A stretch of DNA of 43,623 bases, from the IMG/VR virus record IMGVR_UViG_3300011439_000031, positions 1 through 43,623 of that record; one strand, given 5' to 3'. Made by a program: the position numbers and the translations under genes. The DNA is from a virus (Duplodnaviria > Caudoviricetes). How positions within the stretch are numbered: position 1 is the first letter of the stretch; each line of letters starts with the position of its first letter. The notes under the pieces are model-generated. The model was not told where the DNA came from, made no database searches, and worked only from the letters and a program-made list of their open reading frames with translations. Positions 9,706-41,349 of this stretch are shown one piece after another.

Positions 9706-10422
9706 TTGCAAAACCTTCAAGAAACTGCTTTACTGGCACAAGTGGCTACCTCTTTCTCTGTACCCCCAATTCGAGTATCTGCAACACCCATAGAAGAACT
9801 CCCCAACCCGGATCGTCTTCTCTCAGACGAACGCTGGATGCAATTTATCACAGACCTAGAGTACACTTACTGGGATAGAGGGGAATACCTCTCCTCCCAA
9901 GATATGGCTGAACTCTACTCTCTAAAACTCGATGAAGCTGAAGCCCTTCTTTTAAAGGCTAACCCAGTCCTAGAAAAGCGCGGCTTACCTCCAACTACTC
10001 GTAAGACCTTGTTCAAGGATCAGTTCGATCCTATGTTCGTTCTAGCTGTGAACAAGCTCTCAGATCCAATGGATAAGAGAAGTAACGCTGTTAAACTAAA
10101 GGACCTAGGACTAAGCACTAAATCTTTCCAAGCTTACCTAAAACTGGAGAAGAACCGGAGTTACTACGAGCGTCGTCTTAGTGAAGCTTTTGAAACAACA
10201 GAGTACTCCGCTAAGACTTCACTCATGCGTAATATCGAGTCGGGAGATCTAAACTCCATCAAGTACTTCCATGAGTACACGGGCCGCTTCAACAGTACCG
10301 AGTCGACCGCTTTCAACTTCATCCTAGTTCTCCAAAAGGTGATGGAAATCTTGGCGCGGCATGTAGATCAGAAGGTTCTTGATTTGGTCGCCTCAGAGTT
10401 TGAGAAGGAAATCTCCGAGTGA
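9706..10422 (+). CDS. Putative terminase small subunit (start uncertain)
   Basis: First rightward gene; HTH-like segments and a C-terminal ...ESGDLNSIKYFHEYTGRF motif of the kind seen in TerS-like proteins. Confidence 0.55.
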   Translation: MQNLQETALLAQVATSFSVPPIRVSATPIEELPNPDRLLSDERWMQFITDLEYTYWDRGEYLSSQDMAELYSLKLDEAEALLLKANPVLEKRGLPPTTRKTLFKDQFDPMFVLAVNKLSDPMDKRSNAVKLKDLGLSTKSFQAYLKLEKNRSYYERRLSEAFETTEYSAKTSLMRNIESGDLNSIKYFHEYTGRFNSTESTAFNFILVLQKVMEILARHVDQKVLDLVASEFEKEISE

Positions 10423-20647: not shown

Positions 20648-21130
20648 ATGGCTGCACACGTTTTTAACGTCGCTTTGGGGCGCTGTGTTGAACTTCATAG
20701 GAGAGCTAAGACTCAAGATGCTTTTTGGGCTGGTAACTGTCTCTGCGTAGCTGTTTTAGCAGCTGCTGGTCTGGAATCTGACGCTATTCTTCTTGATAAG
20801 GACTGGCTAGGTGACGTAGTTGTTGGAACTACAAACTTAGTTACAAATACAACAGTTCCCAAAATTATTCCAGCTGCTGATCTAACTTCTCCTGCTCCAA
20901 ACAATGCAACAGATGTTTTTCCTCTGGATATGGTAGATATTGCTTTTGGAACAGTAAATGCTGGGGATACTTGGTCTAAGGTTTTGGTTTGTTGGAGTCC
21001 TAATGGTACTATGGGTCAACTAGGTGCTATTGTTCCAATGACAATGCACGATGTTAATATTGTTCCAGATGGATCTACTATTACAATTCAAATTCCAGCT
21101 GCTGGCTATTTCCAAGCCGGTCAATGTTAA
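20648..21130 (+). CDS. Virion structural protein, paralog A
   Basis: VFNVALGRCVELH...GLESDAILLDK...HDVNIVPDGSTITIQI...GYFQA. Confidence 0.8.
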   Translation: MAAHVFNVALGRCVELHRRAKTQDAFWAGNCLCVAVLAAAGLESDAILLDKDWLGDVVVGTTNLVTNTTVPKIIPAADLTSPAPNNATDVFPLDMVDIAFGTVNAGDTWSKVLVCWSPNGTMGQLGAIVPMTMHDVNIVPDGSTITIQIPAAGYFQAGQC

Positions 21131-21140
21131 AGGAGAAGTC

Positions 21141-21617
21141 GTGGCTTCATCTGTATTCAATATTGCTAAAGGACGTGCTGTTGAACTTCATGCTATGGCA
21201 ATTGGCGGTGGTCCTACCTCTGCCTGTCTAGTTGTGGCTGCAATTTCAGCTACAGGTTTAGAGACTGATGCTGTTCTTCTTGATAAGGTCACTTTGGCTG
21301 ATGTAGTTGCAGGGACTACAAACCTTGCTGCCAATACCACAGTTCAAGTCGTTGACACTCCTATTCCTAGTTCACCGGACGATACAAATAACTGGATTAG
21401 ACTTGATCTAACTGACGTCAACTTTGGTGCGGTTATTGCTGGTGACCCTTGGGCTAAGGTTGTCATCGGTTTTAATCCTACACTTGCAACAGCTGCAACT
21501 AACCATGCAAGTACTATCCCGATTTCCCTTCACGATATTGCTATTACTCCTGACGGTTCTACTATTATTATCCAGATCAACGCACTTGGCTATTTTCAGG
21601 CGAATGAATGCCCGTAG
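21141..21617 (+). CDS. Virion structural protein, paralog B (start GTG 21141)
   Basis: AAGGAG RBS; VFNIAKGRAVELH...GLETDAVLLDK...HDIAITPDGSTIIIQI...GYFQA. Confidence 0.8.
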   Translation: MASSVFNIAKGRAVELHAMAIGGGPTSACLVVAAISATGLETDAVLLDKVTLADVVAGTTNLAANTTVQVVDTPIPSSPDDTNNWIRLDLTDVNFGAVIAGDPWAKVVIGFNPTLATAATNHASTIPISLHDIAITPDGSTIIIQINALGYFQANECP

Positions 21618-24600
21618 TTCCTATTCAGCAAGCCCTTGAACAAGATCGGGCTCGGGATACTCCCAGCTTCCACCCTCTTATTCAACAGGCTCTTGAAAAG
21701 GATCTAGCTAATAATGTAACTGTACAGTTTACAAAGATTCCTAAGTTTGTTTTAATTCAGCAGGCCTTAGAACGTAACTCGGCTCAGAACTCATCGGGTT
21801 CTAAGTTTGTTCTAATTCAGCAGGCCTTGGAGCGTAACTTAACTCAAGACCCACAGTTTATTAAGTCTGTAACGTTAAGTCAAGCTAGTGAAGCTAACGT
21901 AGCTCAGAACGTAACTAGGTTCGTCTTTCCTCCTAAGATTGTTTTAGTTGAACAGGCGCTTGAAAAGGACTTAGCTCAGAGTGTAACTTTCCAGTTTACT
22001 CTGATTCCAAAGTTTGTTTTAATTCAGCAGGCGTTAGAAAAGGACGCTTCTCAAGATGTAATTAGGTATATTTTTCCTCCTACAATTGTTCCTGTTCAGC
22101 AAGCTCTAGAAAAGAACGTTGCTCAGACTGTAACTTTCCAGCTTACACTGACACCGAAGTTTGTTCTTATTCAACAGGCTCTCGAAAAAGGTGTAGCTCA
22201 AGATGTTACACTTGGTAGGACGTACCTACTTCAACAAGCTCTTGAAAAAGATCAATCTCAGGACTTCTCATTTAGTAAGTCTACTAGTGTTCAACAAGCG
22301 GTTGAAAGTAACCAAACTTATGATGTAGCTAGGTTTATCCAGCCTCCAAAACTCGTAGCTATAACACAGGCTCTTGAAAAAGATGCTTCTCAAAATGTAA
22401 CTTTCTCATTTACTCTATCTCCAAAATTCTTCCTTCTTGAACAAGCTCTTGAGCGTAACCAATCTCAAGACGTTGCGCGCTACGTTATACCTCCTAAGAA
22501 TGTTTTAGTTGAACAAGCAGTTGAACGAAACCAAGCTTATACTGTAACTGCACAATTTACTTTAACACCTAAGTTAATTTTAGTTGCACAAGCAGTTGAG
22601 AGGAACTTAGCACAAAATGTAGAACTTGCTAAGTCTACTCCAATCGAACAAGCAGAAGAATCTAACGTAGCTCAGAATGTTACGTTTGCTAGATCTACAC
22701 CGATTCAACAGGCTTTTGAGGGTAACCAGACTTATGACGTAATTAGATTTATTCTTCCTCCTAAGCTTATCTTGGTTCAACAAGCTCTTGAAAAGAACGC
22801 TTCCCAAGATGTAACTGCACAGTTTATTTTATCGCCAAAGTTTGTTTTAATTCAGCAGGCTCTTGAAGCTAACTTATCTCAGGATGTAATTAGGTATATA
22901 CAGCCTACTAAGGTTGTTCCAGTTGAGCAAGCAATAGAGCGTAACCTAGCTCAAAATGTAACTGCTCAACTTACTCTAACACCTAAGCTAGTTTTAATTG
23001 ATCAATCACTTGAAAAGAACTTAGCTCAAAACGTAGCCTTTACTAGAGCTAAGTCAATTGAACAGGCTATTGAAGCTAACGTAGCCCAAGATGTAATTCG
23101 GTACGTACAGCCTTCAACGAATGTTTTAATACAGCAAGCATTTGAAAATAACGTAGCTCGTGATGTAAATCTTCTACCTTCTAAGAACGTTCTACTTCAA
23201 CAAGCCATAGAACGAAATCTTGCTCAAAACGTAACTGCTTTAATAAAGCCAGCTCTAGTAATAGAGCAAGCTTTTGAGGGCAACATAGCTCGCGATTTAA
23301 CTGAGTTTACACCGCCACTAACTCCTATTGAACAAGCGTTTGAAAGTAACGTAGCTTATAATTTAGTTCAGGTACCTTCTACACTTGTTCCTATCCAACA
23401 GGCTTTTGAAAAGAACGCTGCTCTTGATGTAGCTCAACCTGTTCCTTTCCCAATCGAACAGGCGTTTGAAGGTGACGTAGCTCGAAACGTAGTTGGTCTT
23501 GTACAGGCTGCTAAACTTGTTCTTATTCAGCAAGCTTTTGAAGCTAACCTAGCTCGGGACTTCGGTCAACCTAGTTACTTTACAATCCAGCAAGCGTTTG
23601 AACGTAACCTAGCGTTTGATTTTCCAATCAAGGTTGTCTCGATTGAGACAGCGTTTGAAGGTGATCTAGCTAGAGATGTAAGTCTACCTAGACTAACTCT
23701 TATAGAGCAGGCATTTGAAAAGAACGTAGCTCAGAATCTGGTCTTTTCCTTCAGTGGCAAGGTTGCTTTAATTCAGCAGGCTTTTGAAGGTGACGTAGCT
23801 CAGAATCTTGGCAAGTTTGTACAGCAAACTCTTCTTGAAACTGCACATGAAGGCAACTTCGCTTTTGAAGTAACACAATATATAATAGAGACGCTTCACG
23901 GTTCCTGGTTCTCTGATCTTTATCACGCCATAGGTTGGCAAAGTAAGATCTCTTCAATTGGTTCAGTAAGTGATCTTTATCACGCAATAACACTGAAGGG
24001 TAGCGTTAAACTTCCAGCTTGGTTGAGTGACGTTTACCCTGCTGTTGGAGTTAAATCAAAAGTCTACTCTCAAGAAATTGTTAGAGTTACAGCCTTCCTA
24101 GTGAGTGCTCTTGAACAAGCGTTTGAAAACGATGTAGCTCAGAACCTAGCAAACCCAGTTCCTCAAATTATCTCACTAACTCAAGCTCTTGAAAGAGGCT
24201 TGTCTAGAGATGTAGCTCATCTGCTTCCAGATGTTGTTTTAATTGAACAAGCAGAAGAACAGAACGTAGCTTTAAGCATAACGTTTATGTTCCCAAGGGT
24301 TGTTGTAATTCAACAGGCTTTGGAAAAAGATGTAGCTCAGAACGTAATAAGGTACGCACCAGTCACCGTTCTAATTCAACAGGCATTTGAAAAAGATGTA
24401 GCTCAAAATGTAGTTCACCTGTTCCACAACGTACTGCTAGAACAGGCAGTTGAACGAAACCAAGCCCTTAATATAGGTCAGGGTAGTTATAAGGTTATTG
24501 AAATAGCTAAAGAAAATAACCTAGCTCTTGATCTAATTAAGAAACCTCTCTTTACCATAAGCCAGGCTCTTGAAAGAAACCTAGCTCAAAACTTAGTACA

Positions 24601-24811
24601 ACGGCCAGTCATACCGCAGCAGCTTCTTATAGAAACTGCACATGAAGGTAATTTTACTTTCACCATAAGTAAGTCTGAAATAACTAAGTCTAAGTACGGT
24701 TGGATTTCTGATGTTTATCACGCTATTGGATGGAGCTCTCGTATATCTTCGGATGAGAGTTCTACACTGGATATTTATTCGGGAGTACGGACTAAGAGTA
24801 AGGTGCATTAA
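21608..24811 (+). CDS. 1067 aa tandem-repeat protein (43 x IQQALEKNxAQNV-like), putative fibre/filament component
   Basis: Repeats counted by eye; lies in the structural operon. Confidence 0.8.
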   Translation: MPVVPIQQALEQDRARDTPSFHPLIQQALEKDLANNVTVQFTKIPKFVLIQQALERNSAQNSSGSKFVLIQQALERNLTQDPQFIKSVTLSQASEANVAQNVTRFVFPPKIVLVEQALEKDLAQSVTFQFTLIPKFVLIQQALEKDASQDVIRYIFPPTIVPVQQALEKNVAQTVTFQLTLTPKFVLIQQALEKGVAQDVTLGRTYLLQQALEKDQSQDFSFSKSTSVQQAVESNQTYDVARFIQPPKLVAITQALEKDASQNVTFSFTLSPKFFLLEQALERNQSQDVARYVIPPKNVLVEQAVERNQAYTVTAQFTLTPKLILVAQAVERNLAQNVELAKSTPIEQAEESNVAQNVTFARSTPIQQAFEGNQTYDVIRFILPPKLILVQQALEKNASQDVTAQFILSPKFVLIQQALEANLSQDVIRYIQPTKVVPVEQAIERNLAQNVTAQLTLTPKLVLIDQSLEKNLAQNVAFTRAKSIEQAIEANVAQDVIRYVQPSTNVLIQQAFENNVARDVNLLPSKNVLLQQAIERNLAQNVTALIKPALVIEQAFEGNIARDLTEFTPPLTPIEQAFESNVAYNLVQVPSTLVPIQQAFEKNAALDVAQPVPFPIEQAFEGDVARNVVGLVQAAKLVLIQQAFEANLARDFGQPSYFTIQQAFERNLAFDFPIKVVSIETAFEGDLARDVSLPRLTLIEQAFEKNVAQNLVFSFSGKVALIQQAFEGDVAQNLGKFVQQTLLETAHEGNFAFEVTQYIIETLHGSWFSDLYHAIGWQSKISSIGSVSDLYHAITLKGSVKLPAWLSDVYPAVGVKSKVYSQEIVRVTAFLVSALEQAFENDVAQNLANPVPQIISLTQALERGLSRDVAHLLPDVVLIEQAEEQNVALSITFMFPRVVVIQQALEKDVAQNVIRYAPVTVLIQQAFEKDVAQNVVHLFHNVLLEQAVERNQALNIGQGSYKVIEIAKENNLALDLIKKPLFTISQALERNLAQNLVQRPVIPQQLLIETAHEGNFTFTISKSEITKSKYGWISDVYHAIGWSSRISSDESSTLDIYSGVRTKSKVH

Positions 24812-40330: not shown

Positions 40331-40500
40331 TTAACTCTCCTTATATTACGACGAAACCAACAACGGAATCGTCCTTTGCGAGTTGATTTATCTATGAACT
40401 TAACAGCCTTTCCGTCCTTAGTTATTAAGGCTCCTGGATCAGTTGGGTCATACCAACCTTTTAGGTTTGGTAAATCTTTTGGAGACCACTCTTTATTCAT
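40327..40500 (-). CDS. 57 aa protein resembling the start of a LamG-like fibre domain (absent from the track)
   Basis: MNKEWSPKDLPNLKGWYDPTDPGALITKDGKAVKFIDKSTRK...; ATGA coupling at both ends. Confidence 0.65.
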   Translation of the reverse strand: MNKEWSPKDLPNLKGWYDPTDPGALITKDGKAVKFIDKSTRKGRFRCWFRRNIRRVK

Positions 40501-40763
40501 GGACGCGATTCTCTCAACTCTGTGATAATGACTCCTGCCAATTGTTCTGGCAAATCTAATTTACGGATTGCACGCCAAGTCGCTGCATCTTGTTCTGCTG
40601 CCTCAGCAACACTCAACCACTGCATCGCCATAGTACGTACCGTTTCAGGATCAAGCTGCCCAACCATTAATATACCATTAGTGGCATTAGTGGCAACAGT
40701 CACGAACGGCTCACCCTTTTCGTTAACACCAGATGTAAGATTTACAGCTTGAAGTTCATTCAT
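40497..40763 (-). CDS. Hypothetical protein
   Basis: 88 aa ORF whose start abuts the tRNA-like element. Confidence 0.7.
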   Translation of the reverse strand: MNELQAVNLTSGVNEKGEPFVTVATNATNGILMVGQLDPETVRTMAMQWLSVAEAAEQDAATWRAIRKLDLPEQLAGVIITELRESRP

Positions 40764-40845
40764 AGTGAAGGCGGCAGGAATCGAACCTGCATAGAAACTC
40801 CTGTTGGCGGGGAGTATCTCCTATATTACACCAGTAATCGCCCTC
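40763..40845 (-). ncRNA. tRNA-like / tmRNA-TLD-like RNA with G3-U70 and no canonical anticodon arm
   Basis: GAGGGCG/CGCCTTC acceptor stem, T arm GCAGG-TTCGATT-CCTGC, 3' ACTA. Confidence 0.7.
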
Positions 40846-40849
40846 AGGT

Positions 40850-40899
40850 GAGGGAAGGTAGAAGAAACCTGAGAGGTGGCTGAACTTCTACCTTCCCTC
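40850..40899. repeat. 15-bp perfect inverted repeat downstream of the SSB gene
   Basis: GAGGGAAGGTAGAAG-N20-CTTCTACCTTCCCTC. Confidence 0.85.
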
Positions 40900-40929: not shown

Positions 40930-41349
40930 TCAAAACGGCTGATCTTCTGTTTGGAAGGGAAGGATAAAGTACGAAATGCGGTTCTGCTTCCTATCTGGAT
41001 CACGGTTATCTGGACGAACGCCAACATGGGCCTCAAAGTTACGGCCAATCATATCCTCGTCGTCCAACTCAAAATCATCTTCCAAAGGTGCGCCCATAAT
41101 GGCTTCGCACATCACCCTTGCATATGGAAGCTGATCGCCGAGCAAACCCTGGAAATGAAGAACACGGCGTCCCTCATATTCCCCGCTGGTAACTTCAAAC
41201 ACGCAATGAGCAACCTTCTGATTTGGGTTGTTCGCTGCATCCTTAACCTTGAAGTCGGAAACTACCAGTTCGTAGTCTGCCTCAGGAATAGGAAGAAACC
41301 CTCCCTGTGTTGGCCGATCTACCCCGCTGAAATTCAAATTAATTGCCAT
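40930..41349 (-). CDS. Single-stranded DNA-binding protein (DUF669-like)
   Basis: F.PIPEADY, FEVTSGEYEGRR, acidic tail EDQPF; adjacent to the AAA ATPase. Confidence 0.75.
   Translation of the reverse strand: MAINLNFSGVDRPTQGGFLPIPEADYELVVSDFKVKDAANNPNQKVAHCVFEVTSGEYEGRRVLHFQGLLGDQLPYARVMCEAIMGAPLEDDFELDDEDMIGRNFEAHVGVRPDNRDPDRKQNRISYFILPFQTEDQPF

Follow-up and report, generated by a model that had tools for sequence, protein, structure and literature searches.

A tRNA-like element abutting a phage start codon and its probable relation to a family of compact alanine-type tRNA mimics

Known tRNA-like RNAs and the element in the window

Several described RNAs come close to the element reported here, and they are compared with it as far as the available text of each source goes. 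Allo-tRNAs and irregular tRNAs (Mukai et al., PMC5389517) resemble it in having a tRNA-Sec-like D stem with a tetraloop and, in some cases, G3:U70; they have been reported near toxin-antitoxin loci, and some are unused in translation. They differ in their 8/4 or 9/3 acceptor branch and long variable arm, where the element has a 7/5 branch and no variable arm. No antisense partner is described in the part of that text compared, and the irregular 7/5 tRNAs in its supplementary figures may hold related sequences. The C4 RNA of phages P1 and P7 is a cloverleaf that RNase P cuts out of a phage transcript, and its loops are used for pairing (PMC5320573). Unlike C4, the element has a true T arm and an alanine acceptor, and Rfam gave no C4 match at E values up to 10. 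The YrlA Y RNA is a tRNA mimic with D and T arms that occurs in actinophages, but its acceptor is closed by a loop lying between its T and D arms and it goes with Ro60 (PMC4201824); the element keeps tRNA order, and the 47 ORFs scanned in the window included no Ro60 gene.

The window, that is the whole stretch of DNA analysed, is the complete 43,623-base record IMGVR_UViG_3300011439_000031 and belongs to a tailed phage. Among the 47 ORFs scanned are genes for a terminase, a P22-like portal, an amidase, WhiB, a family A polymerase, a primase, a Sak4-like annealase and an exonuclease, and the phage WhiB suggests that the host is an actinobacterium. On the minus strand, the element is flanked by an SSB-like gene and an 88-aa ORF (Table 1). 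Elsewhere in the window, a 1067-aa ORF (21608-24811, plus strand) without PHROG match contains at least 30 degenerate repeats of about 20-25 codons each, and a tandem pair of phrog_26662 paralogues (20648-21617, plus strand) is 71% alike across 122 nt.

Table 1. Features in and around the element, in window positions
Feature	Position	Strand	Description
Upstream gene	40930..41349	-	weak single-strand DNA-binding protein match; behind Sak4-like annealase
Upstream hairpin	40850..40899	-	perfect 15 bp, 20-nt loop; ends 4 nt before G1
tRNA-like element	40766..40845	-	80 nt, from G1 (40845) to discriminator A73 (40766)
Acceptor 5' strand (G1, A2, G3)	40839..40845	-	partner strand 40773-40767; 7/7 pairs including G3·U70 and A2-U71
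D hairpin	40825..40838	-	5 bp fully paired, UGGU tetraloop, directly on acceptor without linker
Middle arm	40791..40824	-	34 nt: 6 bp, 3-nt bulge, 5 bp, 9-nt loop (40810-40802)
T arm	40774..40790	-	5/5 bp, loop UUCGAUU
Anti-SD	40815-40811	-	paired to internal SD by outer helix of middle arm
Internal Shine-Dalgarno (SD) site	40798..40802	-	predicted buried; four 3' bases with p unpaired <=0.01; duplex -6.6 kcal/mol
10-codon internal ORF	40760..40792	-	through T arm and acceptor; TGA overlaps ATG of 88-aa gene by 4 nt
88-aa ORF	40497..40763	-	conserved phage ORF, no known family, without SD of its own
Next two ORFs after 88-aa ORF	40500-40327, 40330-40190	-	each coupled via 4-nt overlap

The element is a genuine tRNA mimic. 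On re-reading, the sequence and coordinates quoted in the preliminary description proved correct, and folding confirmed the parts it had listed, the 7-bp acceptor with G3·U70 and A73, the perfect T arm and the bulged arm with a 9-nt loop. It had not weighed the paired D hairpin on the acceptor, the A2-U71 pair, the ability of U(-1) to pair with A73 as a possible eighth acceptor pair, or the 15-bp hairpin upstream. The variable loop is absent, and in place of an encoded CCA there is C-U-A at 40765-40763, where the last A is indeed, as had been seen, the A of the next gene's ATG. The minimum free energy of the element is -30.4 kcal/mol (z -2.46, 91 nt), and z improves to -4.41 once the upstream hairpin is included. 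A loose cloverleaf descriptor gave 1 match in the real window as compared to 5 across 200 dinucleotide-shuffled copies of it.

That this is no ordinary tRNA, as had been claimed, also agrees with the results: ARAGORN made no call, and Rfam gave nothing at gathering score, the best weak match being tRNA-Sec with 25.9 bits against a cut-off of 47. The element lacks the 2-nt linker, 5-bp anticodon stem, 7-nt loop with U33 and variable loop of canonical tRNAs, as well as the 8/5, 8/4 or 9/3 branch and long variable arm of tRNA-Sec and allo-tRNAs. An archaeal-type intron in the middle arm is ruled out by the single bulge and the bacterial host. Of the identity elements of alanyl-tRNA synthetase (AlaRS), G3·U70, A73 and G4-C69 are present, and also G1-C72; missing are G20, the D loop being UGGU, and G2-C71, a listed bacterial alanine element, while it is G3·U70 that AlaRS relies on (PMC9976931). 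The proposed alanine identity thus holds for the main elements G3·U70 and A73 but not for position 2-71, which is A-U rather than G-C.

A compact family with G3·U70

Relatives were collected by pattern scans of IMG/VR, JGI metagenomes and GTDB followed by a structural descriptor filter; some scan patterns were loose, and most of their listed matches failed the descriptor. Two phylum samples were pattern-searched, with matches in 13/401 and 3/401 genomes, centre genomes counted in. Of the distinct compact elements that passed the filter, at least 77 have G3·U70/A73 and at least 51 do not. From the 77 we removed 8 tag-less tmRNA domains, 8 elements with an alanine UGC anticodon and 4 odd rows, leaving 57 rows; further removal of a tmRNA domain, L756, gives at least 56 elements with that of the window counted in, and counts out of 57 rows still hold L756. 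G3·U70 was imposed by most of the patterns, and L076, L127, L132 and L050 were recovered without that constraint.

The family is defined by a 7-bp acceptor with G3·U70/A73, a linker of 0-2 nt, a D stem of 3-6 bp with a UGGN tetraloop, and no variable loop, and it is typically built of a UGGU D hairpin on the acceptor and an arm of about 8 bp with mostly an 8-nt loop. The window element has the acceptor, the linker, the D stem and tetraloop and the missing variable loop of this definition. Covariation in the acceptor, D and T stems is circular, because the descriptor imposed pairing there. In the middle arm, where pairing was not imposed, double-sided changes occur at 8/8 pairs, and 72% of the cells are paired. 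A pattern without pairing rule gave a D stem of at least 4 pairs together with an acceptor of at least 6 in 15/21 matches, or in 10/16 without the five centre-genome matches. The loop could be anchored on Y-U in 36 of the 54 members of normal arm length, and among these 36 an A is found at the seventh position of the 8-nt register in 30 and a purine at the sixth in only about 15, all counted among the matches listed.

According to the source records, the family occurs in Patescibacteria, Planctomycetota, Gemmatimonadota, Eremiobacterota, Acidimicrobiales and others. Some host genomes hold several copies of the element, an intact tmRNA is also present in 5/5 family host genomes tested, and several of the phage copies adjoin ordinary tRNA genes. 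No conserved protein neighbour was found among 78 ORFs scanned. In Rfam searches of eleven loci, family members reached only sub-threshold tmRNA or tRNA-Sec scores, and ARAGORN called 11/34 G3·U70 elements (33 loci, among the matches listed), several of them as Arg, Ser, His or Stop. Two members were compared by BLAST with plasmids and cultured phages, and no match covered the full length; a covariance search was run on 151 genomes from the same class as G002 and, with 32 candidates scored per genome, was insensitive. In a literature search that left most subscription papers outside, we found no description of such a build, or of a tRNA-like RNA with an antisense antidote. As judged from sequence and predicted structure, the family is a class of tRNA look-alikes that is absent from Rfam and that ARAGORN misses or misnames, and it is to this class that the element in the window points.

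A covariance model of the compact-D family (R1), which was not trained on the element, gave it 46.6 bits and an E value of 1.2e-10 in a search of the window, where the second-best match had 9.6 bits. Twelve held-out family matches scored 38.8-68.7 bits on R1; such a score alone is no proof of membership, as 77-nt matches that fail the compact descriptor, presumably ordinary tRNA-Ala, reach 51.8 bits.

The scans also returned phage tRNAs with a shifted junction, which have a 4-bp D hairpin with a tetraloop and a 7-8-bp anticodon stem but a normal 7-nt loop. Many of them lie in tRNA arrays; some have Met/Gln loops (L015, L024, L077, L226, L315, L340) and others Ala UGC (L235, L296, L299, L167, L203, L683, L771). 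They are possible ancestors of the family. In the phage members L703/L256 and L740 the loop can be read as UUA (tRNA-Stop according to ARAGORN), and these are candidate alanine-inserting ochre suppressors in a 7-nt register. Compact-D RNAs with neither G3·U70 nor a normal anticodon loop were also observed (L079, L112, L113, L130; L012, L019, L028, L039, L069). One family member (L543:2501-2570) lies just downstream of selA, abutting a 15-bp hairpin, and upstream of a gene that we take to be selB from an N-terminal motif. The partnerless members L658/L155, L519 and L543 have, as in the window, a perfect hairpin of 12-15 bp 0-3 nt upstream.

Antisense partners of the family

Many family members have an 11-27-nt complement of the loop and 5' strand of their arm at most about 150 nt away. 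The complement is laid out as a gene, starting a few bases after a -10 box and ending before a hairpin and a U run, and its orientation to the element can be tandem, convergent or divergent. With a strict rule (complement score of at least 11, -10 box and terminator), a partner was found for 16/77 G3·U70 elements as compared to 0/51 other compact elements, among the matches listed, and for 1/150 sampled ordinary tRNAs; the tested compact-D RNAs without G3·U70 gave no antisense partner. A looser rule gave a partner in 22/42 non-viral and 1/15 viral members among the matches listed (Fisher p 0.002, on rows that are phylogenetically non-independent and with L756 still in the viral set). The partnered elements are mostly bacterial rather than phage copies. 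At L532, L642/L782, L779 and L791 a downstream partial copy repeats the acceptor ends and not the loop, and a convergent RNA there would target the acceptor and CCA.

The type VIII pairs creTA and SdsR-RyeA resemble the partnered members in being neighbouring small RNA genes, on either strand, with one complementary to the other (PMC10767807). This likeness is one of gene layout only and fits 16/77 elements listed; the window copy is partnerless. The family also differs from C4 here, its complement being a small gene of its own with a -10 box and terminator and not the ribosome-binding site of an mRNA. To our knowledge, there is no tRNA-shaped toxin in creTA or SdsR-RyeA.

Expanded anticodon loops mark +1-frameshifting tRNAs, and those of the SufB2 type are similar to the family in its 8-nt register (10.1101/2020.12.31.424971). 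In the available text of that source they derive by mutation from normal tRNAs and keep a normal core, whereas the family has a shifted junction of D hairpin and arm, alanine identity and mostly non-alanine triplets. Because AlaRS relies on G3·U70, and because of what expanded loops mark, we infer that the partnered members are a candidate RNA-RNA toxin-antitoxin pair. It is conceivable, although somewhat doubtful as a whole, that the family is a new all-RNA toxin-antitoxin system in which an alanine-charged mimic with an expanded loop is set against an antisense antidote, that the copies of lytic phages lack the antidote, and that the window copy was disarmed and became a translational switch. 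The toxin would be a stable tRNA mimic, charged with alanine and exposing a non-alanine triplet in its expanded loop, that poisons translation by miscoding or +1 frameshifting. As antidote, a short antisense RNA would invade the toxin loop with its 5' end, and loops and antidotes would co-vary in the manner of incompatibility groups. In the window phage, disarming would have come about by lengthening of the arm, followed by reuse of the copy as a switch. Should the partnered copies prove to be toxin-antitoxin pairs, nature would here be using a mis-charged tRNA with an expanded loop as a toxin, and natural scaffolds for quadruplet decoding might be drawn from them.

The window copy and its possible roles

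The window copy departs from the family in several respects. Its middle arm is 34 nt as compared to 22-27 nt in 54/57 family rows, and it has A2-U71 where 54/57 rows have G-C; 20/57 rows encode CCA and the window copy does not (all among the matches listed). U33 is absent, and the loop does not open with Y-U as in the family. No antisense partner was found within 250 nt (score 9.6, null mean 9.4) or anywhere in the contig (12.1, with 12.1-16.7 for shuffled queries). No terminal repeat was found in the 43,623-base contig, which may therefore be only part of the genome, and a partner may lie at a distance. A duplex candidate at 9813 (minus strand) was no outlier. Sigma70-like sites near the element are at chance level (9 as compared to 7.4 ± 2.7) with none adjoining, and a cis-antisense transcript is not claimed. 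All stems are intact, despite a sequence remote from that of every other member. The element is probably a partnerless and altered relative of the compact alanine-type family, the relation being a structural one.

The extra helix that makes the arm longer than that of the family is the SD/anti-SD helix. Among 23 starts the 88-aa gene has the weakest SD (+1.4 kcal/mol), and the internal ORF a typical one (-6.6); an arm refolded so as to free the SD is 4.6 kcal/mol less stable (-25.0 as compared to -29.6). This SD/ORF arrangement was noticed after the fact and is without a formal null. We tentatively favour, at somewhat less than even chances, that the element is a processing signal for RNase P and RNase Z and a translational gate in cis, with the recombination genes on one side and those that precede the primase on the other. 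The folded precursor would hide both SD and AUG and thereby keep the coupled gene chain off. A cut by host RNase P before G1 would leave the upstream mRNA with an end capped by the 15-bp hairpin, and an RNase Z cut after A73 would produce an mRNA whose leader is 2 nt long. RNase Z cleaves behind the discriminator, and leaderless mRNAs are translated well by actinobacteria. The earlier suggestion of a processing signal that creates a nearly leaderless mRNA is thus plausible, given the 2-nt leader and the weakest SD of the 23 starts. Alternatively, the refolded arm would free the SD and ribosomes would enter via the small ORF. Pairing of U(-1) with A73 could shift the cleavage. A precedent for the release is the cloverleaf C4 RNA, which RNase P frees from the P1/P7 phage transcript (PMC5320573).

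The released RNA would probably gain CCA and some alanine. Decoding would not be expected, with 16 stacked pairs in the D hairpin and middle arm (about 12 in the family) and no U33; since such a long arm without U33 should not decode, this would explain why the window copy needs no antisense partner. If the gate reading is true, a tRNA-like RNA has been reused as mRNA punctuation and as a gate for ribosome entry. What counts against the cis gate is that G3·U70 and A73 are retained, though a cis signal needs neither.

No such element was present in any of the 17 phage loci searched that carry a homologue of the 88-aa gene (best 17 bits; an eighteenth, L802, was left out, its upstream sequence being the same as that of L801), so it is not a conserved control of this gene. 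Relatives of the element were not obtained by BLAST against GenBank phages, where the element and the SSB/Sak4 region gave only T-arm matches or none, nor through alignment of the SSB-like protein, among 38 candidate loci. The element is known from one lineage, and no divergent relative with it was obtained. Only one independent sequencing run, X2, spans the element, and it is identical there; the match in runs X3/X4 is limited to 34 nt around the T arm, X8 gave no matching sequence, and no RNA run is listed for it, which has no bearing on expression. A contig of X7 (depth 2.7) leaves the window sequence 3 nt before G1 with an 11-nt loose end, which suggests a relative that has the hairpin and other sequence where the element starts. 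The upstream hairpin has no listed difference in two low-depth contigs of soil relatives.

The retained G3·U70 and A73, together with G1-C72 and G4-C69, would suit an action in trans, in which the RNA is excised, given CCA and alanylated, and then binds AlaRS, EF-Tu or host defence enzymes directed at tRNA acceptors as a decoy or effector that does not decode, the overlap with the ORF being only an insertion site. The missing CCA is normal for the family, as the count above shows, and the phage copies are mostly partnerless (1/15 viral members with a partner vs 22/42 non-viral, among the matches listed) and in several cases adjoin tRNA genes. We still consider this unlikely, since the bacterial alanine element G2-C71 (PMC9976931), which is G-C in nearly all family rows, is replaced by A2-U71, and since none of the sigma70-like sites of the region, at chance level as they are, is next to the element.

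There is only a small chance that the copy is active and unneutralised as an RNA toxin of the kind proposed for the family, charged with alanine and miscoding or +1 frameshifting, and that a lytic phage turns it against host translation. The window loop fits the 8-nt register of the family (A at the seventh position in 30/36 Y-U-anchored members listed), and expanded loops are typical of +1-frameshifting tRNAs (10.1101/2020.12.31.424971). The arm is about 4 bp longer than that of the family, with a 3-nt bulge and no U33, so the loop should miss the decoding site, and the toxicity of the family is itself only inferred.

Antisense control similar to that of C4, in which processing frees RNA loops that pair with another phage transcript, also seems quite improbable. 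The loop of the upstream hairpin (40876-40865) contains a 12-nt perfect complement of the SD region 9420-9409 (minus strand) of a 75-aa ORF (9397-9170), any such 12-nt genome match occurring in 223/5000 shuffled loops, and the loop of the element matches 9 nt of a hairpin (9160-9139, minus strand) right behind this ORF. The pairing was found after several looks, two further 12-nt matches from the same 165-nt region lie at unremarkable places, the 9-nt site is inside a GC-rich stem, and the best match of the middle arm in the genome does not exceed those of shuffled queries.

It is just as improbable that the element is an inert orphan, recently inserted or decaying and with no current function. 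It is partnerless, departs from the family consensus at several points and is absent beside homologous genes, but every stem is fully paired despite the large divergence from other members.

Comparison with tag-less tmRNA domains

The preliminary description had also seen in the element a minimal tmRNA and a possible SmpB decoy. The tag-less tmRNA of mycobacteriophage DS6A (PMC4131195; PMC11915505) is similar in being about 80 nt long and phage-borne, with a G3·U70/A73 acceptor, a T arm and no tag frame. From the same pattern scans we obtained at least 21 distinct tag-less tmRNA domains of the DS6A type, 79-84 nt long, whose D loop, UGGUUUCGAC, is unpaired and which share a GGA(C) linker; among the matches listed, the motifs UGGUU.GAC and GGA are invariant. 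The unpaired D loop ending UUCGAC and the GGA(C) linker, as judged on this scanned set and not on DS6A itself, set these domains apart from the element, which has neither motif, and the linker is deleted when it is aligned to a covariance model of the domains (R2). The element scored 32.0 bits on R2 as compared to its 46.6 on R1. Six held-out tag-less tmRNA domains scored 49.7-68.1 bits on R2 and 25.6-46.6 on R1, with R2 above R1 in 6/6, and R1 was above R2 in 12/12 of the held-out family matches. Even with the tmRNA-like acceptor and T loop, the length of about 80 nt and the precedent of DS6A (PMC4131195, PMC11915505), a tag-less tmRNA domain acting as an SmpB decoy is therefore highly improbable, as the D hairpin is paired, UUCGAC and the GGAC linker are missing, and the R2 score is far below the held-out range.

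The tag-less tmRNA domains were observed on phage contigs (L764, L679, L685, L668, L711, L714, L717, L768 and others) and at two bacterial loci, the cyanobacterial L554 and L595. Streptomyces phages such as BRock have similar tag-less tmRNA-type matches, which are unannotated.
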